The notes under the pieces: model-generated
What the model was told of the DNA's origin: nothing
The model's database searches: none
What the model saw: the letters and a program-made list of their open reading frames with translations, nothing else
From: Clostridia bacterium
Lineage (GTDB): Bacteria > Bacillota > Clostridia > Christensenellales > UBA1242
Length of the DNA stretch: 64,000 bases
Assembly: GCA_045538455.1 (NCBI GenBank)
Contig: JAZSRL010000010.1
Coordinates: forward strand, 29,244 to 93,243
Reading direction: 5' to 3'
Part shown: one piece after another, positions 2,600-27,428 of the stretch
Position numbering within the stretch: position 1 is the first letter of the stretch
Layout of the letters: every line of letters starts with the position of its first letter
Translations under genes and position numbers: made by a program

Positions 2600-2601
2600 A
2601 T

Positions 2602-3390: not shown

Positions 3391-3411
3391 TTTAATAATA
3401 TACTAGAAAAT

Positions 3412-5056: not shown

Positions 5057-5449
5057 ATGGACTTTATGCAGGAGGCTGTCAAGCAAGCACAGATTGCAAA
5101 GCGTCATGGCGAAGTTCCGATTGGCTGCGTGATTGTGAAAGATGGAAAAATAATTGCCAAAGGATATAATCAACGCGAACATAAGCGTAACTGTTTGTGG
5201 CATGCAGAGGTCGTGGCTTTGAATCGTGCTTGTCGTAAATTAAAATCGTGGCGGTTAAGTGATTGCGAAATGTATGTGACTTTAGAACCATGTCAAATGT
5301 GTATGGGAGCAATTCTAAATGCGCGCTTGAAAAAGGTTTATTATGGCGCTCAATCGACTACTAATTTAAATTGGCAAACTCCGGCTGAGTTTTTACCTAA
5401 TCAAGAAGCACAAAACATTTTAGTGGCTTTTTTTAAAGAGAAACGCTAA
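5057..5449 (+). CDS. tadA: tRNA-specific adenosine deaminase
   Basis: Motifs EVPIG, HAE, TLEPCQMC, C-terminal FF. Confidence 0.85.
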   Translation: MDFMQEAVKQAQIAKRHGEVPIGCVIVKDGKIIAKGYNQREHKRNCLWHAEVVALNRACRKLKSWRLSDCEMYVTLEPCQMCMGAILNARLKKVYYGAQSTTNLNWQTPAEFLPNQEAQNILVAFFKEKR

Positions 5450-5458
5450 AATAAGAAT

Positions 5459-7030: not shown

Positions 7031-7042
7031 GGTGTTTTTTAC

Positions 7043-7071
7043 TTGACTGTTATTCATATAAAAAATATAAT
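7043..7071 (+). promoter_or_regulatory. sigma-A-type promoter of the giant gene
   Basis: TTGACT (7043) - 17 bp - TATAAT (7066); SD-like GGGGG at 7101 before TTG 7112. Confidence 0.75.
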
Positions 7072-7111
7072 TTAGGCATACTAGGTTAGAGAAAAACATT
7101 GGGGGAAACAC

Positions 7112-10100
7112 TTGAAAAAACGCAGTCTTGCCAGTTTATTAATAGTTAGCATTGTTGCTGTTGCTGCTGTTTTTGGTGTGGTTTTCGCTTTTAAAAATTC
7201 TGGTCGTCAACAAGATGTATATGGTAGTGTAACGGTAACGGTTGATAAGCCGAAGATTGATTTAGAAATTGAGCTTGTTAAAGATGAGACAACAGATAAT
7301 GGATTCCGAATTGTCGACAAGCCAGAATCATCTGCTTACTTTACGATTACGGTTGGTGGTTTGCCAAAAACTGCTAGTCGTCGTGTCGAGTTGAATAAAA
7401 GCTCAATAAGTAATGGTACTGTTAAGGTTGAATCTGTATCTTCTTTAGAAGAAGCTGCAAGAACCGGTATTAACAATTTTAAAGTGACCGGTATAAATGG
7501 TGGGGCGCCAGTAAAAATGGTTTTTACGACCGTTTCTGGGGCTCAAACGATAGCTGTTACTGTTAATGTTCATATGACTGCGAAAGATATGAAGATTGCA
7601 GAAGAATCTCGTTTTGCTTTGCGTCAAGGAGAAGCTCCTTTAAATTTGATGTCTAATGCTATTTTAAATAAATTTACATTCTTTGCTCATCCAGAAGACA
7701 GTGGTCGTGTTTATACAGCAAATAAATTTCCAGTTACATATCGTTTAAAAGAAGAATATCCAGGCGTTATTTTGCAACAAGGTGCAATTGCAGTTAGTGA
7801 TGCTGCAACTTGTGTTGATCAGTATATTATTTTACAGGCGAAATTGCCGGCAATGACGGAGTGGTTAGACATTCCGTTTTATGTGTTTCCAGCGGCAAAA
7901 GACATTAACATAAAAACAGCAGACGCTTATAAATCTGAAACAACGCAAGAGTATGTTTGGGATTTGATTAAAAATCGTTCTAAATATGCAAACGCAAGTT
8001 TTGAATTTGCTTTGGATTATGGAAAATCTGCAAATTCAGATTATGGGTTTAAAGTTGTTAGTGCTGATAAGTCCGTAGCTAGCGTAGAATATATAGACCA
8101 ATATACTCGTAAGTTGTCTGCTGGACAAAATCTTGGTGAAGTTGCGATTGATGTTGTTTGTTATCCTATTATTAATGTAGATGGTAAATCAATAGCGTTT
8201 GACGGTGCTGAAAATGAAAATGTGCAAATCAATAAAACTTTTTATATCCGTGTTCGTAATGAATTTAATGCAGCGGGGGAGAATTTTGGATCTTTATCTT
8301 ATGCTTTAATCGCAAATAAAAATACAGTAAATACCTATTATTATGAGGGTAAAGATAGTCAAAGTGATTATTTTGATACCTTTTCTTTAAATACTGAAAA
8401 TAGTAAAATTGTTAATTTTGAGTCTGAAATTGAATTTATTTTAGATGTTGAATATCCAAATGGACAAAAGGTTTCGTATGGTTGGGATGCATCTAAAAAC
8501 CCAAATCCGGAAATTGGTTTGTTTAATGTTTTACAAATTGGATACTGGTCTAGTGAAACAAATAGCTGGGTCATGCTGTCTGAAAAAAATCATACAGTAA
8601 ATTATTTAAATACTTTCCGTATTTCATTTGTTAAATCTGCGTACGCAAAAGAAGAGTTTATGTATGACGATTTAAAATTGACATTACGCGCAAAAAGTGT
8701 GCATCAATTAACAAATGGTTCATATGCTTCTTATGCACTTAATCTTGATTCAATTTATGCAATTGACGGTTTTGATGTTAAAAATTTAACGGAATTTGAT
8801 GATGGTAGTAAGGGCATTGCTTTGGTTTATGACGAAGAAAACGGTTTCAGTAGTGCTACTTTAGAAGTTTGTGGTTTAATTACTGGCGTTAGTGGCGTGG
8901 TTGATACTTATAGTAAAAACTGGAATCCGAATAAGGTTACAGATAACCGTAATGAATTACAGGCTTTTAAGATCGAGTCAAGTGTGGATTTATCAGGGGA
9001 TATTCCTTATTTGCGTTACGAAATTTCGGGAAGTGATAAGGCTGAAATTGAATATTACAGGGATTATCCATTGACTTTGGTATATGCCAATGGAAAGTCT
9101 TTAACTGTAAATGTTCGTATTTATCCGACAGTTGAAAAATTGTCAATGCTGGCTGTAAGTAACAATAGAGGGGAAATTTATAAAACCAGTCAATTTAACA
9201 ATGGTGATTTTGATTTGGTGCGTACTGCATATGTTCGTAAGGGGCACACATATGAATTTATAATTGATACGGCGAAAGTGAATGTGGGCGCGTATGCAAT
9301 GTTTGATGAAGTACGCAGATCTAGTTGTGATATTGTTACCAATACCACAAGTAAAGTGTTTGATGCGCGTGAATTAGATGAAGGTATATACGAATGTCAA
9401 GTTAGTTTACATGCTTATAGTGATTCTGTTTATGCCAATAAAAAAACTAAATTAACAGTTTATATGGTTGTTGTTGATCCTGTTGTGAATGTAGCAATGC
9501 CGGAAGTTATTCGCTTGAATGGTATAAATGATAGTGCGGAATTAACAATTAGTTTATCTACAATAGAAGGAACTAAAATAACTGATGATAAATTTTTGAA
9601 AATTGATATTGTAGAGCCGATTAATAATAGTATATTGGTTGAAACTGGGGCTGAAATTAATAAATTTAAAGTAACAGCTAAATATATCTCGCGTGAGGCT
9701 ATTAATCTTGGCTTTAAAATTTTCAAAAGTTATAATTTTGTTAATTATGATTTAGATGGTGACGGTCGGGATGGAAACGAAATATTTGAGTTGGATTATA
9801 TTGGTGGCAACTCAGTTACCACACAAGTTGTGGTTGTTAATGAAGCCCCGAACAAAATTGAAAAAATTGATGGTGTTAACCATAACCCTAAATTAGGTAA
9901 CTATTTGGGAATTATTACAAAGCCAGAAAGTGAAGAAAAAACTTTGATGATTGATGTTGCCGATCAGGCAAAGAACAATGCAATTGGTATTGCATATGCA
10001 GAATGGAAAAATGGTAAATATGAATTGTCTCCGTTTGTGGCTTTTGAAAATGATTTAATCATCCCAAATGTTGTAACTATTAACATTGATCATAATGAAA

Positions 10101-13100
10101 TTAAATTAACCCCTGTTAATGGTGTAACGAGTTTAGGTAATTATGCCTTGGTTGTTTATACTTGTGATAGCTTATATTTAGCCGAAGTTGTTGACAGTGA
10201 AGAATTGGTTTTGCCGCAAGTATATGAATTTGTTTCACTTTATTTAGGTAGCGAAGATGAAGTTAATGATAAAATAAAAGAAATAGCGAGTGGTGTAGTT
10301 CATGATGCAAACAGTGGTCAACGCAATGATCGCGGTGGGTATAACTGGGTTTTACAAACGAAAAATAGTGATAATACAGCTGCGCTGTTTTATACACCAG
10401 AAGGCGTAACAAATAACTCGGAAATTGAAGCGAATGTTTACTATTTTGATGATTTATACACAGTTCTTAATTGGGAAATTTTAAATAAGCCACAAGTAGT
10501 AGAAATAAGCAAACTTGTTAATGGTGAGACAGTATCAACTGATACATATCGATATGAAAATGATCGTTTATCGATAAATTTAAATAATTTTGTTAGTGAC
10601 ACCTTGAATGACACCATTTGTTTAAAAATATCAGCTGGTGCTCGTAGCGCGTATTTTTATATAGTAAATGCTATTGATGTTTTTGAACTTAAAATTGTTC
10701 CAATGGTTGGAAATGGTGAAAATTCAACAGAATTTGGTGTCGGTTTAGCGTCTCGTAAAAATTTGTCGCCTGATGAAAATAATAATTTAATTGATACAGT
10801 TCCAGTACAACGCGGAAAAGGCTTTGATTTCGAATCGGATTTACCAAATGGTTGGAGTCTTTATAGCTCAAACTTTACACGGGAAGAACAAAGAAAGACT
10901 AGTGATGTTTCATATTCAGGTGGAGTATATACCTTCTTCCCGAAAATTTCCTTAGGAAACTGTGATTTCGAGTTAGATGCTTTGAAATCTACGGTTAAAG
11001 TTAATGTACGCGGTGGAATTAAATATTTAAACATTACTGATTCGTTTACATTAGATAGTATTACAGCTGCTACTTATGATTTAACTGTGCGTACGGATGA
11101 ATTGTTGACTACTGATTCTGACTGGACAAACGGGGTGTTAGATTACACATTCTTGTATCAAGATGTATATTATAAGATTTTTGATGATGAAACTGTTTCT
11201 TACATTAACATGGAAGGTGGTAAGGCTCAATTAGAATTCAAGTTAACCTATTTAGACGTTTCTGAACCAGTTAATGGATACTATACTTATTGGTTAAAGA
11301 TTACTGTTGCAATTGTTATTAAAGTTCCAGATGTTGATCCTTTTTATGAATTCTCTGGTGCGCGTTTATATGTAACTGAGGATTTAACAGGTTCGGCATT
11401 AGTCAAGACACCTATGTCGGATTCGGCTGAGTTGAATTTGATAAAAGATGGTGTATCTAATATAACGCTTTCACATTTTGCAGAAACTAATGCTGTTGCT
11501 GCGAATAAAAATGCCGTTTCATTAACCGATGGGCAAACAAATTCGGGTATTATTTATCTTGATGAAAATTCTCTTGGTGGTATTTTGGTGGTTCATCCAA
11601 CACCAAATTTCGCTAATGTTACTAATATAGTATTATCTACTAAAAAAGCATATGAACAAGAAGTTGTTTTAGGGTATGATTTATCGGGTAAGCCAATTAA
11701 AGATAAAGTTAAATATTCAATTGGATTTACACAAATGGTGTACAATGAAGACCAAAAGTTTTATCAACCATATATTTCTGGCAGTTCAATACCGAAAATG
11801 ATTTCAACTTGGTCTAGTGCTGATGGATACAAGTGGAATGGTAAATATTATTTTAAAACTTTTGTTGTTTGTGATTCAAATACAAGTCAACGCTTAGATG
11901 ATGGGGCTGAATTTACTGTTGAAGTTACCATCAAGGGGGAAAATAATACAGACAAAATTAGCGAAGAGATGATCTTAGTTGCTAAATATAAAAACAGTTT
12001 TATAATTACTCCAGATGACGATGTAGAAGATTATGCTGTTTGTACTATGCAACAAACTCAATATCAAGCTTTGGGAACAACCGCTATTTATGATATCGCC
12101 TTGCCGCTTGATTGCATTCCTAATTATGCAGGTTTTACATTTAATGGTATTTCATCTGCTTCTAAAACTGTTGAAACCAGTCAAGCAATTGTAACACTCG
12201 ATAGTGTTGCACAAACTATTTCTGTATATTTGAAAGCTGATTCAAAAAATATAAATCAAGTTTTGGAAGTTCGTATTCCTTATAAACGCCAAGGCGATTA
12301 TGTAAATCCTTATTTGAGTGTTGTGATTGTTCCTGTGTATTTTGAGTTTGAATCATTAGAAGTTATAGATCACTATGAATCTCGTTTGCAATTAAAATAT
12401 GGCGAAGTAAACAAATTAAAATATAAAGGCTTGTTTAAATATGATATAAGCATGCTAAATAGCATTTTGTCGGAAAAAATTAAAGCATTTAATTACAATT
12501 TACAAACAAGCAGTTTGGTTTATTTTGATTATGAAACTCCTAATGAAATAAGTGTTGAGTTCTGTTACAATTATGAAAATGGAGTTCCTGTTTTAGCCAA
12601 AAATGGTATTTGTCGTTATGTTCAAGTATTTGAATATGATGTGGTTTCAGAGAATGTTGTAACCGATAAGCGTACAGAATATTTAGCTGTCGGTACTGCT
12701 AAGACCTTTACTTTTGAAAATTGGGATTCATTGTATGCAAATAAATTATACTCGAAAGTGGATGGGGATTATGACGCAATCTCTGATTATTTAGAAATAA
12801 TTGAACCTGTAGTAGTGCGTAACAATGTTGAAATTACAGTAAGTCTTATTAATAAAAGTAAAAAAACAAATTCGGAAGCTTATGCAGCTTTGATTAATCA
12901 AAAAGAAATTGTCATTAATGTATTTTCGACAGCCAACACAAATACTCCATTGTTAGAGTTGACCATTGTTCCTGTTTACTTTACCTTAAATGAATTTAAA
13001 TTACAAAATAATCCCGTTAATCCAATTGTTGCTTTAACAAAACCTGTTACAGTTACGGTACAAGCAAGCGGTATTGAAGCTGCAAATGATGCTGAAATAT

Positions 13101-19100: not shown

Positions 19101-22100
19101 CCGAAGATCCAACAGACCCAGAGGATCCAACAGACCCAGAAGATCCAACAGATCCAGAAGACCCAACTGAACCAAAAGATCCAACGGATCCAGACAAAAA
19201 AGAATATAAAGTTGGACAAATTTCAAAATCGATGCAGTCAATCGGAACTTCTCGTGATTATAAAATTAGTTTTGCTAATGAAGAAAATCTAACATTCTAC
19301 TTGGATCGTCTTGAAGTCAAAAATGGTGGTCCGAAAAGAGGAGAAAACGAGTACGAAAATTTTGATATACAAGTTAAAGAAGGTGCAAACAAGCAAATTA
19401 CAGTAAGTTTCACATTAATGGCTACGGCGAAAACCGTTAATGATTGGATTGATATTTATATTCCATATACAGCTAATAAAGATGGTGTTGTTAATGATTG
19501 GTTCGTTTATATTTTGCGCGTTAAACCAGTTTTATTCGAAGTTACAGGTTGGACATTAAAAGTTGGCGATGAAATAGTTAATGATGTTGTTTTAAATAGA
19601 GATGCGGTTGAATTATATTTCACCCCGCAAATTATTCGTTGTGAAAATGATGCTTGTTATTATCCTGATGAGCTCGAATACATCAGAAATTCAATCAAAC
19701 GCTTAGAAATGGAAATTAATACTTATGATCCGGCCAAGAATGATAAGTATACTTACATGGTTATTGAAAATACTCCAGAAGTTGGCTCACAAGTTAATTA
19801 TGATATCGTTCGTGATGACGACACAAATACTTCTTATTTAGTAAGAACTTCAAATGATGTATCGACAACAGTGATGAATCTTTCCGTAAATATCGCATAC
19901 GGTATTAGTGATTTTGATAAATCGTATGTTGGCAGTGCACAAGCTGTTGAACATTATGATGAAACTACTGATACAACCAAAATTTGGGGACAAGTCAGTG
20001 TTCGTACTATGGATCGTTCAATTTTTGAAGATTCGACAGAAGAATTATTAATTCCAATTACACAAGAAACTGCTGCTCAATTAATGAATTTGCAATCTGG
20101 ATTTGATTATATATTAATGAGTGACATCTATTTAGAAAAAATTCCAGGTTTAATAGATGGTAAATGGAAGCCAGTTAGCTTCCCAAATGATGCTACTTTA
20201 GACGGTAATAATTTTAAGATTTATTTCGGTGATGCTGGCTTTGATTTAAGCAGTAAAACGCCAAACATCGGTTTATTTACACAAATCCCTGAAGGTTCTG
20301 TTGTAAAAAATGTTCAAATTGTTATTGAGCGTGGAACAGTCAATAACCCATACTCAACTTTAACCGTAAACTTACAAGATTATGGTTCTGGTTCCGTTAA
20401 TATTGGCTTGTTAGCTGGGGTCAATAATGGTATTGTTACGAACTGTGCTGTTTTATCTGAATGGCAATTTGAAATGCGAAACTTGACGGAAGTTATTAAC
20501 CCAGTAACAGAAACTTATTTTGAAGATGTTTTACCATTCAATAAAGATGGTATAGTATTTGATGAAAATTATTTCTACGAACTTGGTACGACCATTTGGG
20601 GTGATGTAGTTGTTACTAATGTTTATAATAACCTTGGTTATCGTGTTGAAAAGAATTATGAAACTGGCAAATATGATAAAGTTCTTTATGATGTTTACCA
20701 CAATGTGGCAAAATGGATCGAACCAGATCGAACCAATGTTGCGTGTTACGATGATTATACAACAATTGAATTAGATCCTAACAGTAGTAAAACACATTTA
20801 AGTAAATCATTGGCTAAGTTCTATGTTCAAGTAAACAATAGGGAGCTTGATGTTACTCTTGGTGGATTAGTGGGGGTAAACGCATACATGGTTACAAATA
20901 GCCGTGTATTGGTTGATGTTGAACTCTATGGTCCAGAAGTTATCACTGAAACAGGTTTAGTTGATGAAAAAAATGTGGCGTCATCAATAGTTGGTGGCTT
21001 TGTTGGAGTAAATGATGGAACAATTACTTCAAGTTTCTTCCGTGATGGTAGTGTTATTAATAATGCAAATGCGGCAAACGAAGCAAAAGGTAGTTTATTG
21101 GGCGGTTTTGTTGGTCAAAACAACGGCAATATTATGCAATCTTATGCTATGGGTTGTTCAACCAATCGCGATGAAAAATTAAACAACATTTCGGCAGCTG
21201 GTATCGTTAAAACTGTTCGAAACTCTTTGGGTGGATTTGTTCATGTAAATAGTGGTCATATATCAGATTGTTTAGTAAATATGGTTATTGAGAAAACTGG
21301 TCCTGACGGATCTGCTGGTGGTTTTGTATATAGAAATAAAGCAGGGGCGACAATCACTAATTGTGTTGAAAATAATAATGTAATTGTTGTTGGTACTGGT
21401 TTAACGACAAAATATTACGCTCCGTTTATCCAAGTTAATGGTGATGGTGAAGTTGATAAGAATTTCGAAAAAGTTGACAAGACAGGGTTAAATAACTTGA
21501 TTTATGCAGGTAATGTTAGTCCGACAACAGTTTGGGGCGATACGATTAAACATTTAACTAACAATAATGCAGATAAAGCTTTTAATGATATTAAAAATTA
21601 TAGTGGGTTCTCAATTGGATATGGCGAACTTAATGTAACAGACAAAAATACAATTTGGAAAATGACCGGTTTGGGACCAATGCTGCGTGCTGCAAATGAA
21701 ATCGCGGTAAGTTCACGAAAATATAGTTATGATGCGTCAATGTACTTATACAAACCTGGCTCGGCAAAAAACCCATACTTAGTATGGAACGAAGATCAAT
21801 TTGATGAATATGTTTACAAAGCAACAGCGTATGCCGTGCAATCAGATAAAGATACTGAAGAAAAAGGTGTAAGTGACATCGAAAGAAACAGACAAAATAA
21901 TCATTTGCGTTTAGTTGATAATTTTGCATTAACCAAAGGAATCCAAGGATCACAAAAAATTATTTATACTGGTACGCTAGAAGGTAACGGTTTAACCATG
22001 AGTGGCATTAATTCAACGACAAATGTAAACCGTTTATCAACAATGGGATTGTTCGGTAAGACTGAATATGCAACTATCCGCAATATTAATTTAAAAGTTG

Positions 22101-25100
22101 GATCAATTATTTCTGAAGCACGCTATGTCGGTGCAATTGCGGGTATTGCGATTAATACTAACTTTGTCGATGTAAAGGTTTTAAGTGAATCGAATTCTGG
22201 TCTCGTTAGTGGTAAAAATATTGTTGGTGGATTTGTTGGTTTAAATATTATCAATGATCCATTCGTTGAAAACTATAATATCCACAGTTCTTTGTCAGTA
22301 GAAGCTACATTTGGAACTGCTGAATATTATGATGAAAATACAAATTTATTTACATCAGGTGAAGAATATGTTCGTCAAACCTTATATTCGCAAGTTTCTG
22401 CTCTTGAGCAAACAGCTGACCAAAGTTTCAATACTGCGGGATCAGTTTTCGGATTTGTAACATCTAATCCTAATAATTATCGAGTAATTGATGAAAATGG
22501 AAACGAAACCATTATTGAGCGTAGATTTGATCATACATTCACTCGTAATGGTAGAGATGAAGCTTATCGTTCTGCTAATAACTCGGAAAAGGGTTGGTTC
22601 TCGAAAGATAAATTCGGTAACTCTTTTGATGACGCGAATTTGTACTATGGTGAACAAATTACATTGTATAATGTAAGTGGTGAACCAACTTCTGTTACTG
22701 CTAGTGTTGCTGGTGGTTTGATTGGTATCATTGATGAAACAATTGAGATAAACAAACCAAGTTTGGAAAATTTAAAATCTTTAACAGGTAAATATTACTT
22801 AGGTGGTATAGCTGGTATTAACTTAGGTAAAATTTCTGGTGGTATTAGTACTAATGAAGAAAACAAAACTACAACATATAGTACTGCAAACCTTAACAAT
22901 TTAACTATTTCAAGTTCTGCGAAAAAATATGTTTTCAGTAATGCGGAAATTAATGGTAATATTACTCATTATTGGGGTATGACTGTTGGTGGAATTGCTG
23001 GTTATAACAATGGTGTTATAGAAAATATTAACATTAAAGCAAAAATGTTGGGCACAAATTCTGATGCGATATATGTTCTTGGTGGAATTGTTGGTGTCAA
23101 TAGTGAAGATGGTTACTTGGTAAATGTGGTTAATAATCACAATGATATTCAGGGCCAATCTACATATAAAACAGTTCAAGTTGATAATACTCAAGCTGGA
23201 AAGATTGGATATTATTTTGGTAAAGTTGTCGGTCGCGGTGCTTCTTCAGATTTAATTATGATTCCATTCAATAGTTTCCCGAATTCTTCTATTTCAAGCT
23301 TTAACCGTTTTGTTAATAAAGATAAATTTGTTCCAAATGAGTACTTTAATGTTGTTGCAAATGAAACAAATAAAGTACAAACCATGACGATTGAAGAATA
23401 TCGTGCGTATTTAGTAAATATCATTAATACTCAACCAAACTTAAGTATTATTGAGCGTGTTAATTTATTAGAACCATGGTTGCATAGTTTAGCGACAGAA
23501 GTGATAACAATTCCTGCAAATACGATTCAATCTGGCGATGTTGTCTTTGCAGAAATTTATGAATCCAACGCAAAAGAAGAATTCTTGAATTGGGTTAAAA
23601 CAAACAATATTTTTGAAATTTGGACAGATGGCTATGATGGTTTAAAAAATAATGTAATTTATGATTACGGAGATTATTATCTTGCGTATAGAGCGATTAG
23701 TACAAAATTAGCACATACAGCAGAATCAGAAACTGATTTTGTTAATAATATTGAAACTTACCGCGATAATCGTCACCAAATGGCGACTGAGTTCTTTACC
23801 TATAAATATAATATTTCAAGTTCTAATAAAATTTCAGGTGTTCAAAACTTAAAATTTAAATGGTGGGATTATGAAGAATATTTAATCTTAAAAGAATATA
23901 GTCGTGATTATCAGGTTTTGTCCACCAGTAATGAATATGAATTATTTGAAGACCGTTTTGGTGAGGAACTTGTAAAAATGGTATATCCGTATGCTACGAT
24001 GGTAGAATATACCGATGGCTACAAAGTTATGACATACAGTAATGAACACTTACGCAAATTGTTGGCTTTGACCCAAGAAGAAGATTGGCAAGCTCAATAT
24101 CAGTTTACGAATAAAGATCCGCTCCAAGTTTATATTAATTATGTTGTCCAATTAGAACCTAACGAAAGCGTGTTAAAAATTGATAATTTTGAAATGCCGC
24201 TGGTTCATTATTATTACTATATGTCTGAATTGTATGGTAAAAACTATACAAGTACACATGGATCATCCTCCTATAACTACTCAATTCCAACAGATTTGCC
24301 AATAGTTAATAGTAATGGCTATGCATCATATTTGTATTTAAACTTCTTGCTTGATGAATCCGGCACCAATATGTTGACAATCCCTGAATATATTGACGCG
24401 GTAAAACACGAAAGACCCATTGTCCGCGAAAACGAGGAAATTTGGTTGAAGACTGGACACCAAGCTGGTGGTGCGCGTATCAGTGATGTTGGTGTGGTAA
24501 GATTGGGTTGGGCGGATAGAGATAATATTGCAAGCGTCGTAAAAGAGATAACAGTTAACCAAGATAAAAGTATCTTTACTTATGGGGAAAATTCGTGGAA
24601 TGTAGATGTTGAATATGATAAAGCAAAAGGTTACGGCTTAGATATTAATAAATATAAAGAAATTATTACATTGGGCGGTAGCTTGTATGAATTCATTGAT
24701 AAATATGAAAAACACGATGTAGATTCTGTGGATAAATATATCTTTGGTTTAAAGACCCAACAATTTGGTTGGAGTGCTCCACAGGTTGCATTTATTGAAG
24801 AATATTTCAAAACCCAAAACAACAATTACGATTTAAAATATGCTATTGTTGCAACAACCTATGGCAATATTTTAGATGCTGATGGTGTAATCCGTTCGGT
24901 ATATGAATCCAGCAATCAGACAGTTGATGAAAAAAATGGTTGGTGGTATGTAGACAACGATTTGAATGGTAACCCATCGGAAGGTGAACCAAAAGGTGTT
25001 TGGTATTTCCCAGCGAACTATGACGCACAATTTGTTAATGGTGACGGTTCTGCATATTATGTTAATACATATGCACAAATCAATTTGGCTGCAACAGGAA

Positions 25101-27385
25101 ACCAAGGCGCAGCAATGTATATTGATGGTGATGGCAATAAGATTTTTGGTAAAACTGGTATTGCTAGTGGTGAAAGTTCGGATTCGCGTCAAGCCGGCAA
25201 TGATGTCTTGTTAATGTACCAAGTAGAAAATGGTGAAGATGCGGAATTCTATCAAGTTGACACAAATGGCAACAAAACATATTTCAAAATTATTCGTCAA
25301 ATTGTTCAAAATGAAAGCGTTAATATTACCAGTGGTGTGGAAAAAGATCCATCGGGCAATTATTCTGATTTCTTGGAAGAGGCGTTGTGGTGGCGTAACC
25401 AAGGATTCACGGCGTATGAATTTGCAGAAATCAAAACACATGCGATGACAGAATCATTACCAGACGGCAGCAGTCCGGCAGCGTTTGAGTATGCTACTGA
25501 GTATACAGAGCGTAACACGGGCTATACATTGGCCGATGACTGGCACAATAATGAAAAAGCATCTTTCAAATCCGCAGGATTTACCCCCAGCGATTATACG
25601 GCTATCGTTTTGGGTGCGTCATATAAAGATGGTAAATGGTACAGTATTTACGCCGATTACTTGTTGTTTACAAAATTAAATGATGTTGGTTATATGAATG
25701 ATGTGTCGGTTGACCCAGACGCAATTACCGACATGTTGCCGTTAACTTCGGAATTTAACGACCCGTTTGGTTATGATCATAAGGGAAACCATCTTTCAGA
25801 AATGTTTATTGCAAAAGTTGCACATGAAACCGAATTGTCTGATGCCATGGTCTTCAGTTCGGACCGCGTAGCATTCATGCAAATGTTCCAATTGGGTTGC
25901 TCCAGTGCGGATTACATCGCATGGGCGGAAGAATTTGCTTACAATGTAGATCAAACCGAAAAAAAATATTTCCGTATCAACCATTACATTTATTACATAC
26001 AAGAAGATTTGGCTAGTGATTCTAACTTCCATACTGACGATTTGAAATGGGTCTTGACACCCGAAGTTACCAAAGAAATTTTCTATACCACGGTAACACC
26101 AGAAGCGCGTACCACCGATTTAGTGGAATACCGTCGCGATTGGTTCAATAAAGGCGGTAAACCGTACATTACTTTCCGTGATTATTGTGAATGGATTAAT
26201 ATTTATAAGTACAGTGATAAATATCGTATGGACCGTGGTGATATTGGTATGGAAAATGAAGAAATTGACCAAGGCGACTTAACTGCGACCGATGGTTGGT
26301 TATCACTGGAATCCTTTGCGGTTTGGAAGCGTATGGAAAAATACGAAAACAATATTGAATATTTAAAAAATATTACCGATACAACGCCAGAATACGAAAT
26401 CACGGCACCGATTTTAAAACGCCAAATTAGTACCACAGTCTTCCCAAGATTAGACAGCAGTGGTGAATATAAAAAAGATGAAAGTGGACTGACCAGTTAT
26501 GAACGCCGTTACCTACCACAAGCAACAACGGACTCAAGTAAAATTGATGATGTTAATGATGATATTATCAAATATTACGGCTGGGATAAAACCAATAATG
26601 GTGAATATATCTTCAAAGATAACTTAATGTCGCTTGAAGCGCAACGCCATGTCAACGACCGTTATGAATATAATGAATATTATATAATTAGAAGTGATCT
26701 TGAAAGAACATTGGGTAATGATGAAAAATTAGCTTCCAGAGAAGTTTTCTATAAAATTGCAAATGAAAAAATTATACACGATACAAAATATGCAAAAAAA
26801 TGTGACATTCTGTGTGGTGGATTGGAAAATCCTTGTGAATGTCAAGATCATACCCACGCCGCCTATCATGTACGCCGATGGGAAGAACGCTATGGATTGG
26901 CGTATTATGAAGGGAAATTAGATTCTTATAGCAAAGATTATAAGGGCGATGCTATGTACGCGTTGAAACTAGATGAATTTAAAATAAAAAAATATTATCT
27001 TGGATTTATTTATGAAAATGTTCAGAATGGTTTTGACCCGTATGGAAATCCTACTTATGCACGGATACCTAGAGATCAATATTGTATCATCCCTGATGAT
27101 AGGTCATACGCCCAATTGTATGTACCGTACGATGTATTTAAATGGGCGTGCCAAACCATTAAATCACAATTCCCAGATTCAAAAGGTTATAAAAATTATA
27201 TGAAATTCTGGGCAAGGAATGGGGAATACAACTGGATTTGTGATACCAGTGAATATGATGGTCCGATGGGTGATGAGTTTGTTAAGGTACAATACACTTA
27301 TCGAGCACACAATTTCTGGACGAATTATGATGGAACCTTATCGCCAGTAGATGGTAGCTTTATGAAAGCCGTTGGCTGGGAATAA
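7112..27385 (+). CDS. Giant 6757-aa predicted cell-surface protein: N-terminal signal/anchor, beta-rich stalk, 11 repeats, GLUG-type beta-helix modules, unknown C-terminal region
   Basis: Uninterrupted 20.3-kb ORF with its own promoter, SD and terminator. Starts MKKR plus hydrophobic helix. GG(L/F/I)(V/A)G.N motifs and GSAKNPYL..YTGTLEGNG..GLFG at about 20050-23250. Confidence 0.9.
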   Translation: MKKRSLASLLIVSIVAVAAVFGVVFAFKNSGRQQDVYGSVTVTVDKPKIDLEIELVKDETTDNGFRIVDKPESSAYFTITVGGLPKTASRRVELNKSSISNGTVKVESVSSLEEAARTGINNFKVTGINGGAPVKMVFTTVSGAQTIAVTVNVHMTAKDMKIAEESRFALRQGEAPLNLMSNAILNKFTFFAHPEDSGRVYTANKFPVTYRLKEEYPGVILQQGAIAVSDAATCVDQYIILQAKLPAMTEWLDIPFYVFPAAKDINIKTADAYKSETTQEYVWDLIKNRSKYANASFEFALDYGKSANSDYGFKVVSADKSVASVEYIDQYTRKLSAGQNLGEVAIDVVCYPIINVDGKSIAFDGAENENVQINKTFYIRVRNEFNAAGENFGSLSYALIANKNTVNTYYYEGKDSQSDYFDTFSLNTENSKIVNFESEIEFILDVEYPNGQKVSYGWDASKNPNPEIGLFNVLQIGYWSSETNSWVMLSEKNHTVNYLNTFRISFVKSAYAKEEFMYDDLKLTLRAKSVHQLTNGSYASYALNLDSIYAIDGFDVKNLTEFDDGSKGIALVYDEENGFSSATLEVCGLITGVSGVVDTYSKNWNPNKVTDNRNELQAFKIESSVDLSGDIPYLRYEISGSDKAEIEYYRDYPLTLVYANGKSLTVNVRIYPTVEKLSMLAVSNNRGEIYKTSQFNNGDFDLVRTAYVRKGHTYEFIIDTAKVNVGAYAMFDEVRRSSCDIVTNTTSKVFDARELDEGIYECQVSLHAYSDSVYANKKTKLTVYMVVVDPVVNVAMPEVIRLNGINDSAELTISLSTIEGTKITDDKFLKIDIVEPINNSILVETGAEINKFKVTAKYISREAINLGFKIFKSYNFVNYDLDGDGRDGNEIFELDYIGGNSVTTQVVVVNEAPNKIEKIDGVNHNPKLGNYLGIITKPESEEKTLMIDVADQAKNNAIGIAYAEWKNGKYELSPFVAFENDLIIPNVVTINIDHNEIKLTPVNGVTSLGNYALVVYTCDSLYLAEVVDSEELVLPQVYEFVSLYLGSEDEVNDKIKEIASGVVHDANSGQRNDRGGYNWVLQTKNSDNTAALFYTPEGVTNNSEIEANVYYFDDLYTVLNWEILNKPQVVEISKLVNGETVSTDTYRYENDRLSINLNNFVSDTLNDTICLKISAGARSAYFYIVNAIDVFELKIVPMVGNGENSTEFGVGLASRKNLSPDENNNLIDTVPVQRGKGFDFESDLPNGWSLYSSNFTREEQRKTSDVSYSGGVYTFFPKISLGNCDFELDALKSTVKVNVRGGIKYLNITDSFTLDSITAATYDLTVRTDELLTTDSDWTNGVLDYTFLYQDVYYKIFDDETVSYINMEGGKAQLEFKLTYLDVSEPVNGYYTYWLKITVAIVIKVPDVDPFYEFSGARLYVTEDLTGSALVKTPMSDSAELNLIKDGVSNITLSHFAETNAVAANKNAVSLTDGQTNSGIIYLDENSLGGILVVHPTPNFANVTNIVLSTKKAYEQEVVLGYDLSGKPIKDKVKYSIGFTQMVYNEDQKFYQPYISGSSIPKMISTWSSADGYKWNGKYYFKTFVVCDSNTSQRLDDGAEFTVEVTIKGENNTDKISEEMILVAKYKNSFIITPDDDVEDYAVCTMQQTQYQALGTTAIYDIALPLDCIPNYAGFTFNGISSASKTVETSQAIVTLDSVAQTISVYLKADSKNINQVLEVRIPYKRQGDYVNPYLSVVIVPVYFEFESLEVIDHYESRLQLKYGEVNKLKYKGLFKYDISMLNSILSEKIKAFNYNLQTSSLVYFDYETPNEISVEFCYNYENGVPVLAKNGICRYVQVFEYDVVSENVVTDKRTEYLAVGTAKTFTFENWDSLYANKLYSKVDGDYDAISDYLEIIEPVVVRNNVEITVSLINKSKKTNSEAYAALINQKEIVINVFSTANTNTPLLELTIVPVYFTLNEFKLQNNPVNPIVALTKPVTVTVQASGIEAANDAEISNKINAFNADLLSLQNNLADTNTLTFSPVANDNGFLNFNFDSSTREITRADTQNPTSAISYLLVSTSIKYVNGLPTIVSNGKKISTYFTVRTFGEDSEDENEEELELAPEGRARTVAQAIGTTVRYDVSLPGVVYDSLLVQSEVDANNRIIETSEYNWKAHFDLKDGVITVVLNKDTELFNKTLRVMAYSRSGRLVYVLNIIPAYFTVEQVLLVNHLGEDPILVKSGTVNWVENLELDFASNYDKYLENFDFKSAIDNFRDSLKDSSMVSRIENKSSVLISAGINYINGIPTLVNWYNAKIKLQNSYSYLIYDGVPEITKVQFLGQTTTYNINRVFESIKIFDESVNKWMDLDLDADDPYWTIIKSDEKSIKVVLTDDSSSVIGKINRVGIFENYNDADPIYVLNIIPAYFVVEDITVKGQTIEDRYVELYFGEAVDSPAKLVFDTIIDEAYSRKAEYNIPSLVNNFKNEFQNTKANLIGRYYDSDATAGDLLVTLYLNYKNGYPVLVDASESGNDFVVRLDANFTYKIYKKGDGNNDFPLMPAGPRTRTEVQAVGTTSNYVIDLDKELLLDDSILPNGVLVSLSNNVLTVELSEAADTLLKQTDIEINLYAESVLVFVLEIQPVLYEVVGVKTNNLAQPIYLPDLDVANLSYCAIAKYNNEVTYEGKNVQYYIEQFNGTLNSDLVVVELNNEYLKINLAVDYGTSGSKLRSIPALLNVNKYPLNVIESYVEFTDSPLEQGTTSAYYQAVGTTEVYYLGGSNFENAQITNIDSSSVTANIKRNSNSYILEVNVAADANLVGDSVAIKIKAGDKEYTLNINLVWFVVEGFEVVNHPERHMWLINMNEADEIDNLLFHVRSRHAIAGNDAFKAQLQEQISLFNQKLTNEWTQKIERYTIGSSYLVVRAAVDYVDGVGSLINIDDAKATQFVRDVFEYVIYSDANHDIGEIRPVPAHPSVMGSSQVRQVIGNKKNYSINVNGEVSYKYLWVENAGDLKNTYNDSNTGLLHIEYEDLIVYVDNKNDKIQVELAANYSEILTKNIRIYVPYLASYSKGIWYSHCIEITPVLFELEGWTIAAKESSLNDLITDKNNSDYLLLISGNAEFNYVAKINKGNITNDILNALFEQSKADLERNAVSNIEATVEQGNNISFDGLRLSTNFTDVALENIVGLSCYVTYENGIPVFDKNKFTVNEIYNQISISTGYTVEEWEEIEKGLLANGVAYATQAIGTVKSNILEISTAAKIFTKDIKVVNRFTKEPIKIPGERENLVSVKCENFDKITKSVVIKVALAPVEALRYENIEILIPFAKEADAEKAKYVFSYRITPALYIVNGVYLAAAENNFVELKDKDVQLELKINIDACYDYNLKSNIAFRSQNLEADINDAINNNTLNFVVSDGIDDDNINVAIKSHNGLSWISRINNIEVLNYIKASLNINYQDGLPQLSNNNSIATNSVPFEIQVQTKMVESSDDDLIFPDPDPKPDPNPEPTPNPGDDGDIYKKPIPLGRTEITQLIGSTNEYTLSDINGTVAYQYLWVSNAGSVVAPFENASMEMTKINEFLSISVDPVNNTLSVKLEPNSTYLLEPIDIYVPYVDDIDGEDVWYSYCVHITPALFKLNGWKIQGIGENADSLINQDEHYLLTAEEVDIKYVADIEHCIQDNQSTLLNKINNEKIKLEMDAAEYMIANTINSTNIVISNTILTCNDLSVADLYHISLVTYLVYENGIPKLVQNSKQIAYSEITVSTNFTPEQWNGIILDEKLRTDVVYGVQAVGTSKVYDVKIDEAFIISANEIEVLNADTQKPISANWVTVDYIMTDLNNELKLRVYLEADASLFDTTVEIKIPYIKNEEALYYFVSYYITPVAFVVDGFYLSTNASNNIDVTEYEVALDLRVKANYTSSAELYNGTIKVLIENFEKEINDEISQIAGVLSIKELSGDRNIQLVQSSGKVLIKKLNNKSAVNTLSGEIIVGYEAGMAHLYSVDSLTDALISLNIQVTTREKVSEDPTDPEDPTDPEDPTDPEDPTEPKDPTDPDKKEYKVGQISKSMQSIGTSRDYKISFANEENLTFYLDRLEVKNGGPKRGENEYENFDIQVKEGANKQITVSFTLMATAKTVNDWIDIYIPYTANKDGVVNDWFVYILRVKPVLFEVTGWTLKVGDEIVNDVVLNRDAVELYFTPQIIRCENDACYYPDELEYIRNSIKRLEMEINTYDPAKNDKYTYMVIENTPEVGSQVNYDIVRDDDTNTSYLVRTSNDVSTTVMNLSVNIAYGISDFDKSYVGSAQAVEHYDETTDTTKIWGQVSVRTMDRSIFEDSTEELLIPITQETAAQLMNLQSGFDYILMSDIYLEKIPGLIDGKWKPVSFPNDATLDGNNFKIYFGDAGFDLSSKTPNIGLFTQIPEGSVVKNVQIVIERGTVNNPYSTLTVNLQDYGSGSVNIGLLAGVNNGIVTNCAVLSEWQFEMRNLTEVINPVTETYFEDVLPFNKDGIVFDENYFYELGTTIWGDVVVTNVYNNLGYRVEKNYETGKYDKVLYDVYHNVAKWIEPDRTNVACYDDYTTIELDPNSSKTHLSKSLAKFYVQVNNRELDVTLGGLVGVNAYMVTNSRVLVDVELYGPEVITETGLVDEKNVASSIVGGFVGVNDGTITSSFFRDGSVINNANAANEAKGSLLGGFVGQNNGNIMQSYAMGCSTNRDEKLNNISAAGIVKTVRNSLGGFVHVNSGHISDCLVNMVIEKTGPDGSAGGFVYRNKAGATITNCVENNNVIVVGTGLTTKYYAPFIQVNGDGEVDKNFEKVDKTGLNNLIYAGNVSPTTVWGDTIKHLTNNNADKAFNDIKNYSGFSIGYGELNVTDKNTIWKMTGLGPMLRAANEIAVSSRKYSYDASMYLYKPGSAKNPYLVWNEDQFDEYVYKATAYAVQSDKDTEEKGVSDIERNRQNNHLRLVDNFALTKGIQGSQKIIYTGTLEGNGLTMSGINSTTNVNRLSTMGLFGKTEYATIRNINLKVGSIISEARYVGAIAGIAINTNFVDVKVLSESNSGLVSGKNIVGGFVGLNIINDPFVENYNIHSSLSVEATFGTAEYYDENTNLFTSGEEYVRQTLYSQVSALEQTADQSFNTAGSVFGFVTSNPNNYRVIDENGNETIIERRFDHTFTRNGRDEAYRSANNSEKGWFSKDKFGNSFDDANLYYGEQITLYNVSGEPTSVTASVAGGLIGIIDETIEINKPSLENLKSLTGKYYLGGIAGINLGKISGGISTNEENKTTTYSTANLNNLTISSSAKKYVFSNAEINGNITHYWGMTVGGIAGYNNGVIENINIKAKMLGTNSDAIYVLGGIVGVNSEDGYLVNVVNNHNDIQGQSTYKTVQVDNTQAGKIGYYFGKVVGRGASSDLIMIPFNSFPNSSISSFNRFVNKDKFVPNEYFNVVANETNKVQTMTIEEYRAYLVNIINTQPNLSIIERVNLLEPWLHSLATEVITIPANTIQSGDVVFAEIYESNAKEEFLNWVKTNNIFEIWTDGYDGLKNNVIYDYGDYYLAYRAISTKLAHTAESETDFVNNIETYRDNRHQMATEFFTYKYNISSSNKISGVQNLKFKWWDYEEYLILKEYSRDYQVLSTSNEYELFEDRFGEELVKMVYPYATMVEYTDGYKVMTYSNEHLRKLLALTQEEDWQAQYQFTNKDPLQVYINYVVQLEPNESVLKIDNFEMPLVHYYYYMSELYGKNYTSTHGSSSYNYSIPTDLPIVNSNGYASYLYLNFLLDESGTNMLTIPEYIDAVKHERPIVRENEEIWLKTGHQAGGARISDVGVVRLGWADRDNIASVVKEITVNQDKSIFTYGENSWNVDVEYDKAKGYGLDINKYKEIITLGGSLYEFIDKYEKHDVDSVDKYIFGLKTQQFGWSAPQVAFIEEYFKTQNNNYDLKYAIVATTYGNILDADGVIRSVYESSNQTVDEKNGWWYVDNDLNGNPSEGEPKGVWYFPANYDAQFVNGDGSAYYVNTYAQINLAATGNQGAAMYIDGDGNKIFGKTGIASGESSDSRQAGNDVLLMYQVENGEDAEFYQVDTNGNKTYFKIIRQIVQNESVNITSGVEKDPSGNYSDFLEEALWWRNQGFTAYEFAEIKTHAMTESLPDGSSPAAFEYATEYTERNTGYTLADDWHNNEKASFKSAGFTPSDYTAIVLGASYKDGKWYSIYADYLLFTKLNDVGYMNDVSVDPDAITDMLPLTSEFNDPFGYDHKGNHLSEMFIAKVAHETELSDAMVFSSDRVAFMQMFQLGCSSADYIAWAEEFAYNVDQTEKKYFRINHYIYYIQEDLASDSNFHTDDLKWVLTPEVTKEIFYTTVTPEARTTDLVEYRRDWFNKGGKPYITFRDYCEWINIYKYSDKYRMDRGDIGMENEEIDQGDLTATDGWLSLESFAVWKRMEKYENNIEYLKNITDTTPEYEITAPILKRQISTTVFPRLDSSGEYKKDESGLTSYERRYLPQATTDSSKIDDVNDDIIKYYGWDKTNNGEYIFKDNLMSLEAQRHVNDRYEYNEYYIIRSDLERTLGNDEKLASREVFYKIANEKIIHDTKYAKKCDILCGGLENPCECQDHTHAAYHVRRWEERYGLAYYEGKLDSYSKDYKGDAMYALKLDEFKIKKYYLGFIYENVQNGFDPYGNPTYARIPRDQYCIIPDDRSYAQLYVPYDVFKWACQTIKSQFPDSKGYKNYMKFWARNGEYNWICDTSEYDGPMGDEFVKVQYTYRAHNFWTNYDGTLSPVDGSFMKAVGWE
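17522..17575 (+). repeat. Pro-rich linker PDPDPKPDPNPEPTPNPG
   Basis: Direct translation; xP dipeptide periodicity. Confidence 0.9.
19103..19192 (+). repeat. Five copies of an 18-bp tandem repeat encoding an (EDPTDP)-type linker
   Basis: gaagatccaacagaccca-like units at 19103, 19121, 19139, 19157, 19175. Confidence 0.95.
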
Positions 27386-27410
27386 AAAAAGGCGTTTACG
27401 CCTTTTTTTG
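27384..27410. terminator. Bidirectional intrinsic terminator
   Basis: A-tract, ggcgt-tt-acgcc hairpin and T-tract between convergent genes. Confidence 0.85.
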
Positions 27411-27428
27411 TTTATCAATGAAGTTTGA

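Follow-up and report, generated by a model that had tools for sequence, protein, structure and literature searches.

Family-level lineages of Clostridia with genomes below 1 Mb are common in animal guts and are thought to depend on partner cells, and neither the partner nor any contact machinery is known for them (PMC12306168). Who do they live on, and how? A locus in one such lineage, UBA1242, raises this question directly. The family is described as partner-dependent, with genomes under about 1 Mb that carry sporulation genes and lack PGI and F0F1 ATP synthase, and its members come from animal guts (PMC12306168). We analyzed 64,000 nucleotides from one of its genomes (hereafter the window), which encode a protein of 6757 residues. 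An earlier reading of these letters alone, here called the sequence-only reading, took the host for a streamlined organism, and the assembly is indeed that of a 0.90-Mb Clostridia genome (898,904 bp at 92% completeness). At this completeness we found neither PGI nor the catalytic subunits of ATP synthase (ATP-synt_ab); the gene profile matches that published for UBA1242, and the relatives are Clostridia MAGs from animal guts. The presence of PBPs and Spo0A indicates a walled and probably sporulating cell. By full-text literature search, in PMC12306168 and in the searched passages of PMC13155120, we found no description of giant proteins in UBA1242.

The giant gene and its neighbors

The gene is the longest of the 37 window ORFs of at least 150 aa and takes up more than 2% of the DNA of this tiny genome. 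It lies among the following features.

3376..5056, plus strand: two overlapping genes for CAAX/Rce1-like (CPBP) membrane proteases of 204 and 358 aa (PF02517, E 5e-17 and 1e-20)
5459..7030, plus strand: orf523, membrane-anchored by an N-terminal hydrophobic segment, of no known family, directly upstream of the giant gene and co-directional with it
7043..7071, plus strand: promoter-like site TTGACT-17-TATAAT before the giant gene (consensus match only, 11 of 12 positions)
7112..27385, plus strand: giant ORF, 6757 aa, TTG start (ORF call, orthologs and public contigs)
27380..27413, no strand assigned: hairpin (terminator) between the convergent giant and lipoprotein genes, with an A-run before it and a U-run after it
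27429..28436, minus strand: orf335, a lipoprotein gene convergent with the giant gene, lipobox LFTGC
28471-28442, minus strand: promoter-like site TTGACT-18-TATAAT of orf335

One intact 20.3-kb ORF with a promoter and terminator of its own had been described here, and that description holds. A single frame runs the whole length, preceded by the near-consensus promoter-like site, which is the best of eight within 5300-7300, and followed by a strong hairpin of 15 pairs (-17.3 kcal/mol, z -4.69; none of 200 shuffles folds as well) that is absent from the output of a simple terminator scan. The TTG start has gggggaaacac just 5′ of it, and this start codon, the LKKRG.. that follows and the hydrophobic segment behind it are kept in all nine fetched orthologs.

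These orthologs come from nine other species of the genus; they are 6735-7116 aa long, collinear and 37-50% identical to the window protein, and they stand in the same gene order. Public contigs from four runs in four studies cover all 30 bins of the gene, and gap totals are multiples of 3 in all 32 listed contig pieces, so the indels that separate strains stay in frame. The gene is thus real, intact and conserved at full length. It is true that the window derives from a metagenome-style assembly of 12 contigs and that no single public contig among the runs examined spans the whole gene; yet collinear open frames of 6.7-7.1k aa, with unchanged gene order, recur in ten independent species-level assemblies, and the strain indels keep the frame, which makes an assembly chimera or a decaying pseudogene extremely improbable. 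The host genome holds no paralog (blastp, 1e-5), and no RNA dataset carrying the gene is listed among the public runs.

The surroundings are conserved as well. The CAAX gene pair lies upstream of the giant in the nine orthologous regions with fetched flank and also in G134, a genome of another genus of the family (g6). orf523 is kept in all nine regions at 41-58% identity and in G134 at 26% (E 2e-28), and has no match in Pfam, NCBIfam, PADLOC or, by single-sequence search, PDB sequences. The housekeeping genes beside the giant, taken for truncated in the sequence-only reading, are not: RecD2, PheS and PheT match their Pfam domains end to end. Across the same regions RecD2 is 75-90% identical.

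Layout of the protein and its relatives in the family

The protein divides into the following parts.

7127..7192, plus strand: N-terminal hydrophobic segment, aa 6-27 (Kyte-Doolittle), a membrane anchor or else a signal peptide, cleaved or not
7193..12028, plus strand: proximal region, aa 28-1639, of no recognized family, mean identity to orthologs 0.47
12029..19981, plus strand: 11 divergent two-part repeat units, aa 1640-4290, with a PT-rich linker at aa 3998-4031
19982..23311, plus strand: two GLUG-motif modules, aa 4291-5400, the most conserved block (mean identity 0.53)
23312..27382, plus strand: genus-restricted tip, aa 5401-6757, aromatic-rich, of no known family
27104..27382, plus strand: terminal (CT) domain, aa 6665-6757, with the pattern Y.QLY.P.D.F..AC..IKS.Y..GY.NYMKYWARNG..WIC...FWN.YDG..SP

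This agrees in outline with the order proposed before (an N-terminal anchor, some 1600 aa, 11 repeats, two GLUG modules and a tip of roughly 1400 aa), the tip measuring 1357 aa. Apart from the N-terminal segment, Kyte-Doolittle windows above 1.6 occur at two repeat strands only. The segment would tether the protein in the membrane; it ends in V-F-A/F, a possible signal-peptidase site, so the giant might instead be released or held in some other way. The reported absence of LPXTG, SLH and RTX motifs is correct: the sole LPxTx-like string stands at aa 84, with none at the C terminus, and neither SLH nor RTX is among the Pfam matches, for which halves of the protein were scanned at E<=0.1 and aa 4230-6757, in five pieces, at E<=1. 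An HExxH motif was not found in the protein, nor a sortase (PF04203) in the host genome (92% complete).

The proximal region, previously termed a stalk, has no Pfam match at cut-off in any of ten orthologs and no PDB sequence relative in a profile search; TraT and V-set, each a single sub-threshold match among the orthologs, were rejected for the N-terminal region. The repeats are marked by 11 anchors of the ..I.P..F type at aa 1739-4136, spaced by 197-285 aa, and the units are only 16-31% identical to each other. Across species this is the most variable block, falling to 9-19% identity with gaps of up to 62% at aa 3000-3500. Compared with BACON-type clusters in a protein atlas the repeats score 0.83, which hints only weakly at an Ig-like sandwich. 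Matches of the protein halves to V-set, PhiKZ_gp35 and TonB (Pfam, NCBIfam, PHROGs) were dismissed as sub-threshold noise, that to TonB lying on the low-complexity PT linker.

Nine GG[FLIV]xG motifs form two clusters, at aa 4584-4707 and 5039-5324. The first reaches the Pfam GLUG model (PF07581) with 21.8 bits against a cut-off of 20.5, in three stretches; the second, at 16.8 bits, stays under it, and in a whole-genome scan the short GLUG model returns nothing at E<=0.001. With its two clusters of GGhhGxNxGxI-type motifs, the first over cut-off, the giant resembles GLUG-motif surface proteins. It differs from them in that GLUG accounts for a few dozen of its 6757 residues, the second module scores under the cut-off, and the peptidase, SLH and Ig-like families of known GLUG proteins were not detected. 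Beyond this motif the protein belongs to no characterized adhesin family. Profile searches of PDB sequences with the CT domain, tip, GLUG region, repeats and N-terminal region gave nothing credible; the single match of aa 4230-5400 has E 0.34, and the best hits, a phage tail terminator for the repeats (E 0.061) and an acetyltransferase (E 0.34), were rejected.

With a profile of the GLUG region, giant open frames are detected in 90 of the family's 120 other genomes and in 46 of 58 genera. These frames are about 1,300-8,400 aa long, nearly all of them above 2,400. Besides the full-length orthologs of the nine other species, related MAGs hold shorter giants. Two from genus g6, of 3708 aa (G134) and 3850 aa (G095), occupy the same locus: the order in G134 is CAAX-CAAX-orf523-giant-RecD2, and in G095 RecD2 adjoins the giant. 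Both align with aa 30-560, 1035-1587 and 4315-5362 of the window protein, thus including parts of the proximal region, and both end soon after; the repeat block has no aligned counterpart in either, and tip and lipoprotein are missing. The tip is matched in 16 of 18 other genomes of the host genus, the remaining two being 85% and 87% complete, and in none of the six other genera of the family or the 16 other families of the order examined.

From these alignments, the window giant is best explained as an enlarged, genus-specific version of a family-wide giant at the same locus. The shared core would consist of the N-terminal region and the double GLUG module, to which the genus appears to have added the spacer of 11 repeat units and the tip. 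Since the shorter syntenic relatives keep the N terminus and lack the tip, the most parsimonious topology has the protein anchored at its N terminus and the tip at the far end.

The terminal domain, the convergent lipoprotein and Treponema

The tip has no Pfam match in any of ten orthologs, no NCBIfam match and no PDB sequence match. A search among 1.84 billion representatives returned only 51 matches; the long ones are giants or fragments of giants, and most others span just the last ~90 aa. Tryptophan, tyrosine and phenylalanine make up 15.5% of the tip versus 10-11% of the rest of the protein. An AF2 model of aa 5558-6757 has a mean pLDDT of 52, with just the first ~360 residues near 75, and finds no fold match by Foldseek or VIA (best Z 5.0); a model of such low confidence, even without a match, does not demonstrate a new fold. 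The protein-atlas score of the tip, 0.80, is at noise level.

The last ~93 aa behave differently and are predicted to form a confident fold (pLDDT 83.8, pTM 0.70), for which Foldseek gives nothing at E<=0.001 and VIA a best Z of 2.3. This CT domain is the best-conserved part of the tip, with a mean identity of 0.51 versus 0.38 for the tip as a whole, and the variable stretch, aa 6500-6660, lies just upstream of it. Its invariant positions are G58, I63 and W90, and the alignment contains no invariant acidic, His or Cys residue. A lysozyme-like, GH19 endolysin or TseP identity, suggested by four of ten VIA rows at Z 2.0-2.2, was rejected, as these scores are far below a meaningful level and there is no conserved catalytic acid. 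The CT domain has no match in IMG/VR, and neither it nor the lipoprotein has one in a phage collection; like orf523, both are without a match in PADLOC and NCBIfam.

In all ten species, one or two homologous convergent lipoprotein genes follow the giant's stop codon. The lipobox Cys is invariant in 15 of 15 aligned homologs of orf335, while identity to the window's lipoprotein is 18-44%, far more divergent than the CT domain (about 50%). Among 5.8 billion proteins the lipoprotein family has 81 members, whose source names are Clostridia and Treponema only. Pfam identities suggested for it were single sub-threshold matches among the homologs and were discarded. From this gene arrangement we propose orf335 as a candidate cognate partner of the CT domain; a complex prediction for the two (lipoprotein aa 58-335), with a score of 0.00 in each run, speaks neither for nor against this. 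The lipoprotein link of the tip's last domain, which the sequence-only reading had missed, is the most informative feature of the locus.

A fragment of the CT domain together with a lipoprotein gene occurs at five loci in four Treponema genomes. One locus is a short contig of 2.9 kb (L056) that could be mis-binned; on the other four contigs (25-394 kb) the fragment lies beside an intact lipoprotein homolog. The CT fragments themselves are in varied states: two are truncated at the 5′ end, a third is interrupted by stops, and the fourth is a complete ORF of 101 aa. The cassettes are islands of lower GC (0.32-0.41) in flanks of 0.5 GC made up of ordinary chromosomal genes, and the flanks of L041 differ from those of L042. 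Between loci, L042 and L032 match over 1370 nt at 69.5%, and L043 and L039 over 326 nt at 84.7% plus 131 nt at 92.4%. Full-length lipoprotein matches are patchy, in 3 of 61 Treponema genomes. In one Treponema genome (G175, L059) no CT fragment was detected with the lipoprotein.

In the lipoprotein tree the Treponema rows are scattered, and the starred branches force at least six changes; TrepL042 is sister to G001 with support of 100/99. The second lipoprotein clade does not settle which way the transfer went. By these sequence comparisons, Treponema chromosomes have several times received a cassette of end fragment and lipoprotein. The GC content, the patchiness and the hitch-hiking CT fragment point to Treponema as the recipient. 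Several independent acquisitions speak against neutrality and for selection acting on the lipoprotein, which stays intact while the CT fragment decays.

Possible roles of the giant protein

Our preferred account, which we regard as quite possible though short of probable, is that the giant forms a contact filament and that its terminal module has as its partner a lipoprotein that masks it in an immunity-like way. This very long protein would sit on the cell surface, tethered to the membrane through its N-terminal hydrophobic segment, and the 93-aa CT domain would serve as the recognition or effector end in contacts with another cell. The convergent lipoprotein may bind or mask this domain, as an immunity-like partner that protects the producer itself, and the gut Treponema in which the lipoprotein gene persists beside a decaying remnant of the giant's 3′ end would be cells that meet the tip. 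Several observations speak against the pairing. The lipoprotein gene is convergent, unlike the co-directional genes of classic toxin-immunity pairs, and its divergence would not be expected of a tightly matched pair; the CT domain shows conservation instead of polymorphism and has no invariant, obviously catalytic residue; and the lipoprotein of G175 stands without a CT fragment.

The giant could instead be a plain adhesin or surface coat for plant fiber, mucus or host epithelium, with an unrelated lipoprotein and with cassettes that are neutral hitch-hikers. GLUG modules and long arrays of repeats are commonly seen in surface proteins, the aromatic-rich tip would suit glycan binding, and the low identity of the giant next to that of RecD2 reflects fast evolution, as is usual for exposed proteins. 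Adhesins of the Ebh, SiiE and LapA type are likewise of several thousand residues, with a spacer of divergent tandem units, and evolve fast; the giant shares their size, long divergent array and rate, and differs in lacking their Pfam repeat families, LPXTG/sortase, and RTX or T1SS signals, and in its proposed N-terminal anchor. This serious candidate nevertheless seems unlikely to us, as it leaves unexplained why a lipoprotein gene directly follows the giant in all ten species and why Treponema keeps the lipoprotein intact while the CT fragment decays, and the several independent acquisitions speak for selection. A classical polymorphic toxin or contact-dependent inhibition protein, in which an enzymatic toxin at the C terminus is matched by a cognate immunity lipoprotein, would likewise be a giant exoprotein rich in repeats that ends in a small domain and has a small gene next to it. 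The five Treponema loci, where end fragment and partner lie in unrelated genomes, resemble orphan cdiA-CT/cdiI and rhs modules as well as acquired interbacterial defense genes. We consider this identity improbable: the C-terminal domain of the giant, rather than being hypervariable, is better conserved than the rest of the tip; no demarcation motif, catalytic motif or invariant catalytic-type residue is seen; no toxin fold was matched; Pfam finds no known trafficking domain in the giant; and the partner gene is convergent.

The topology might also be inverted, with a cleaved signal peptide, the CT domain docked on the membrane lipoprotein and the N-terminal region distal. The possible signal-peptidase site, the lack of a sortase match and the genetic coupling of CT domain and lipoprotein would fit such an arrangement. 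Even so, we find it very improbable, given that the g6 giants have the same N terminus without tip or lipoprotein and would need another anchor, that a hydrophobic stretch of 22 residues is long for a cleaved signal peptide, and that Treponema would gain nothing obvious by keeping the lipoprotein. A more far-reaching possibility, which we rate as distinctly unlikely, extends the contact-filament account: a genome-reduced Clostridia parasite of gut Treponema would use the giant to attack its host or to attach to it. The CT domain, whose fold has no known relative, would engage the spirochaete envelope, and the lipoprotein would protect the producer and would have been captured repeatedly by Treponema as an acquired defense. 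If this were true, the locus would offer a first genetic hint at the host of an uncultured family, along with a new pair of the effector-immunity-like kind.

Two further systems offer parallels to the contact filament with its masking lipoprotein. In phage T5 the receptor-binding protein pb5 is encoded beside the lipoprotein Llp, which prevents unproductive binding. By analogy, the giant would combine a distal recognition module with a neighboring lipoprotein gene; in contrast to pb5 and Llp it is a cellular gene, bears no sequence relation to them, and has no homologs of its CT domain or lipoprotein in the phage collections. The second parallel is with Omnitrophota, which, according to the consulted portion of a preprint, devote a large share of a very small genome to huge envelope proteins thought to mediate contact (bioRxiv 10.1101/2023.11.21.568195). 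The giant similarly takes a large share of the genome of a small, partner-dependent microbe; on the same portion of that source, it differs in phylum and domain content and in having a single N-terminal segment in place of many transmembrane regions.

Of the sequence-only reading, the real, conserved gene and its small host of the partner-dependent type stand; the beta-rich stalk and the beta-helix modules are putative, the truncated neighbors do not stand, and "undescribed contact apparatus" overstates what one gene can be. The locus encodes a conserved, family-wide giant envelope protein. The genus-specific tip ends in a domain which, with its candidate partner lipoprotein, falls outside all Pfam, NCBIfam, PADLOC and PDB sequence families, and the trail of gene transfer singles out Treponema as being in close genetic contact with the host lineage. 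Who these Clostridia live on, and how, thereby becomes a question open to binding, imaging and co-culture experiments.

Integrity and layout of the giant gene

The gene described by the sequence-only reading is intact and is by far the longest ORF in the window, where 37 ORFs reach 150 aa or more. Its TTG start codon sits 7 bases 3′ of the sequence ggggga, and for the dedicated promoter and terminator claimed for it a promoter-like site and a strong hairpin were located. The hairpin following the stop codon has a z score of −4.69, with 0 of 200 shuffles folding equally well, and is not picked up by a simple terminator scan.

Giant gene and associated features (window coordinates)
2..2599, + strand: final 865 aa of another giant frame (2545 aa in total), which continues upstream in contig C2 of the source genome
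7043-7071: promoter-like site TTGACT-17-TATAAT, matching the consensus at 11 of 12 positions
7112-27385, + strand: giant ORF, one open frame of 6757 codons
Immediately 3′ of the giant stop codon: 15-pair hairpin with an A-run and a U-run on its sides, −17.3 kcal/mol

The giant alone occupies 2.26% of the assembly, which comprises 898,904 bp in 12 contigs at an estimated completeness of 92%. Together, the seven open frames of 1500 aa or longer make up 6.9% of it, a share that counts the two giants of contig C2 (6766 and 2545 aa) and frames of 3888, 2118, 2011, 1744 and 1622 aa on contigs C7, C8 and C12. None of the latter is a relative of the 6757-aa giant (blastp, 1e-5). The 2545-aa frame has no Pfam match and ends in a hydrophobic segment and basic tail (..FGYVILVVVLCIFGIGLLIFVRMRNKMSTK), so that it looks C-terminally anchored, opposite to the 6757-aa giant.

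The predicted layout was likewise recovered in the protein: an N-terminal anchor, a long family-less stretch, 11 repeats, two GLUG clusters and a family-less tip.

Segments of the giant protein (aa)
6-27: N-terminal anchor, the sole hydrophobic window at the N terminus
28-1639: proximal region, family-less
1640-4290: repeat block of 11 units, spaced 197-285 aa apart and 16-31% identical
3998-4031: PT-rich linker inside the repeat block
4291-5400: GLUG modules, two clusters of GLUG-type motifs
5401-6757: tip, with W+Y+F at 15.5% vs 10-11% elsewhere

In none of 10 orthologs does the proximal region reach a Pfam cut-off, and it has no match among PDB sequences. Each repeat unit is two-part, the first part ending in Y.NG.P.L and the second opening with QA.GT, and every unit terminates in an ..I.P..F strand; this block is the most variable segment between species. 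The GLUG modules, which score 21.8 bits (cut-off 20.5) and 16.8 bits against Pfam GLUG, are the most conserved (mean identity 0.53). The stalk may be β-rich, and the GLUG modules may form β-helices.

A query with the last 1200 aa of the tip matches 16 of the 18 further genomes of the genus, the remaining two being 85% and 87% complete. Nine of the matching genomes were fetched for comparison, and each holds a full-length, collinear ortholog in one open frame of 6735-7116 aa, 37-50% identical to the window protein and sharing its TTG start, LKKRG.. opening and hydrophobic N terminus. All nine share one gene order: CAAX protease, CAAX protease, orf523 (a family-less, membrane-anchored protein gene), giant, one or more lipoprotein genes on the opposite strand, and RecD2. 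RecD2 shows 75-90% identity across these regions, which means that the giant is changing far faster than this housekeeping gene beside it. The sequence-only reading had described truncated housekeeping genes nearby; instead, RecD2, PheS and PheT align with their domains from end to end.

That the giant might be an assembly chimera is countered by these nine collinear orthologs and by public data. All 30 bins of the giant are covered, at 90-99% identity, by contigs from four gut/faeces runs of four studies, and gap totals are multiples of three in 32 of the 32 contig pieces listed. There was no RNA run among the public runs listed. No single public contig spans the whole giant, which would suit an artefact, but the chance of one is negligible: the gene is real.

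A core shared by the family and a genus-restricted tip

A profile of the GLUG region has matches in 90 of 120 other family genomes (46 of 58 genera), nearly all within open frames of 2,400-8,412 aa. The giants of another genus of the family, g6, are considerably shorter, with 3708 aa in genome G134 and 3850 aa in G095. Both align to the window protein at aa 30-560, 1035-1587 and 4315-5362 and terminate soon after, without counterparts of the 11-repeat block or the tip. G134 has the order CAAX-CAAX-orf523-giant-RecD2 and the G095 giant adjoins RecD2; neither genome has a lipoprotein gene ahead of RecD2. No tip was found in the six other genera of the family and the 16 other families of the order that were searched. 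The short g6 giants and the genus-limited tip together indicate that this genus extended an ancestral anchored giant, adding a spacer and a novel distal part.

The two CAAX/Rce1-like intramembrane protease genes (window 3376..5056, + strand) adjoin and overlap, and are kept upstream of the giant even in g6. We speculate that these proteases and orf523, also kept there, could help to mature or display the giant.

Titles of the ortholog-bearing loci name MAGs of Clostridia bacterium or Eubacteriales bacterium, with cecum, rumen and gut of various animals as sources. Loci L030 and L032 carry full giant orthologs in MAGs titled Prevotella sp., which look mislabeled or derived from mixed bins. The source genome encodes Spo0A and two PBP transpeptidases, and no sortase, PGI or ATP-synthase α/β was found in it at 92% completeness. 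A matching gene combination has been reported for UBA1242, an uncultured Christensenellales family for which partner-dependence has been proposed (PMC12306168); gene content thus points to UBA1242 as the host family.

The terminal domain and its neighboring lipoprotein

The tip has no relative among families or PDB sequences, and its last 1200 aa have only 51 matches among 1.84 billion representative proteins. The long matches are giants or giant fragments; most others cover the last ∼90 aa alone. These correspond to a terminal domain of ∼93 aa, the best-conserved part of the tip (mean identity 0.51). Structure prediction, among the checks that the sequence-only reading had proposed, covered the tip and this domain: the AF2 tip model is weak (mean pLDDT 52) and gave no match in Foldseek and VIA searches, whereas the terminal domain, from a 41-row alignment, is confidently predicted as three helices and short strands (pLDDT 83.8, pTM 0.70). 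Neither yielded a known fold, the terminal domain having no Foldseek match to PDB or BFVD at E ≤ 0.001 and a best VIA Z of 2.3.

Just before the terminal domain is a C-x3-C-x6-C-x-C cluster followed by H-x-H (aa 6564-6577, nt ∼26801-26842), where the tip is most prone to indels. Roughly half of the orthologs have this cluster; in G012, G010, G006 and G013 it is replaced or deleted, and it is therefore dispensable.

One or two convergent lipoprotein genes (321-703 aa) follow the giant stop codon in 10 of 10 species. Their products are homologous, with an invariant lipobox cysteine, and 18-44% identical to the window copy. The family has no Pfam domain and counts 81 members among 5.8 billion proteins, the source names being Clostridia and Treponema only. 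The gene is in tandem duplicate in G018, G005 and G010 (loci L008, L011 and L020), and the duplication is an old one, as the two copies group in different, well-supported clades. The G006 lipoprotein has 703 aa; one G010 copy, of 470 aa, has a long PEN-rich insert.

In the genome-collection scan, four Treponema MAG contigs (25-394 kb) also matched, by the terminal domain alone. These remnants are 5′-truncated in L041 and L042 and interrupted by stops in L044, whereas that of L043 is a complete ORF of 101 aa. Intact, lipobox-bearing lipoprotein homologs adjoin those in L041, L042 and L044 (E 5e-13 to 1e-34), and L043 carries another; the convergent arrangement is that of the Clostridia.

Treponema lipoprotein homologs beside giant 3′-end remnants
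L041, 3430..4524, − strand
L042, 3312..4292, − strand
L044, 3276..4283, − strand
L057 (same locus as L043), 1453..2485, + strand

A fifth cassette locus, L056, is on a contig of just 2.9 kb that may be mis-binned. GC is 0.32-0.41 within the islands vs ∼0.5 in the flanks, whose genes are ordinary and locus-specific (a two-component system, redoxin and ferredoxin in L041; MiaA in L042). DNA matches join L042 to L032 (1370 nt, 69.5%) and L043 to L039 (326 nt at 84.7%, 131 nt at 92.4%); within each pair both titles share an isolate-name prefix. Full-length lipoprotein matches are confined to 3 genomes among the 61 in that Treponema genus. In a maximum-likelihood lipoprotein tree the Treponema rows are interspersed among Clostridia rows, the starred branches require at least six changes, and the L042 row is sister to G001 at 100/99. 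The most parsimonious reading is that a cassette of giant 3′ end and lipoprotein passed from these Clostridia to Treponema on several independent occasions, with the lipoprotein kept by selection; direction is ambiguous in the tree's second clade. No viral carrier was matched in the phage collection or IMG/VR.

A working model and its alternatives

From the integrity, conservation and layout of the giant, the pairing and the transfers, all shown above, we infer how the giant may work. The N terminus would keep it in the membrane, the proximal region and GLUG modules would form an ancestral shaft, and the 11 repeats, most variable in number and sequence, would be an adjustable spacer. The tip would extend to another surface with the terminal domain as its business end, which the producer's own surface lipoprotein may bind or mask, for self-protection or to avoid self-engagement. 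Tip-exposed cells would benefit from gaining this lipoprotein as well, an advantage that would account for the Treponema cassettes, with Treponema as partner or victim.

Polymorphic toxin systems have orphan modules of toxin end plus immunity gene, and phage T5 has a receptor-binding-protein/Llp pair; the terminal domain and lipoprotein may be analogous to either. A genuine enzymatic toxin-immunity pair is nevertheless quite improbable. Unlike in polymorphic toxins, the terminal domain is conserved instead of variable, shows no catalytic signature or toxin fold, and has a convergent partner gene, and we therefore call the pair immunity-like rather than a toxin system. An inverted topology, in which the C terminus of the giant docks on the lipoprotein, would also account for the pairing, and we consider it very unlikely, as the g6 giants retain the N terminus but lack both tip and lipoprotein. 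An ordinary adhesin with an unrelated lipoprotein as neighbor is unlikely too, if a serious contender: the tip itself would suit it, but the neighbor accompanies the terminal domain even into Treponema.

Giant envelope proteins are already known from small-genome, partner-dependent microbes, for instance from a preprint (bioRxiv 10.1101/2023.11.21.568195) whose Clostridia giants differ from the 6757-aa giant in domain content. In the UBA1242 literature searched, including PMC12306168 and PMC13155120, supplements aside, no mention of giant proteins was found, and the giant's protein family is annotated solely as hypothetical protein. What is new is a giant locus spread across a whole family, a tip restricted to one genus with a terminal domain without known fold, and a terminal-domain/lipoprotein cassette spread across phyla.
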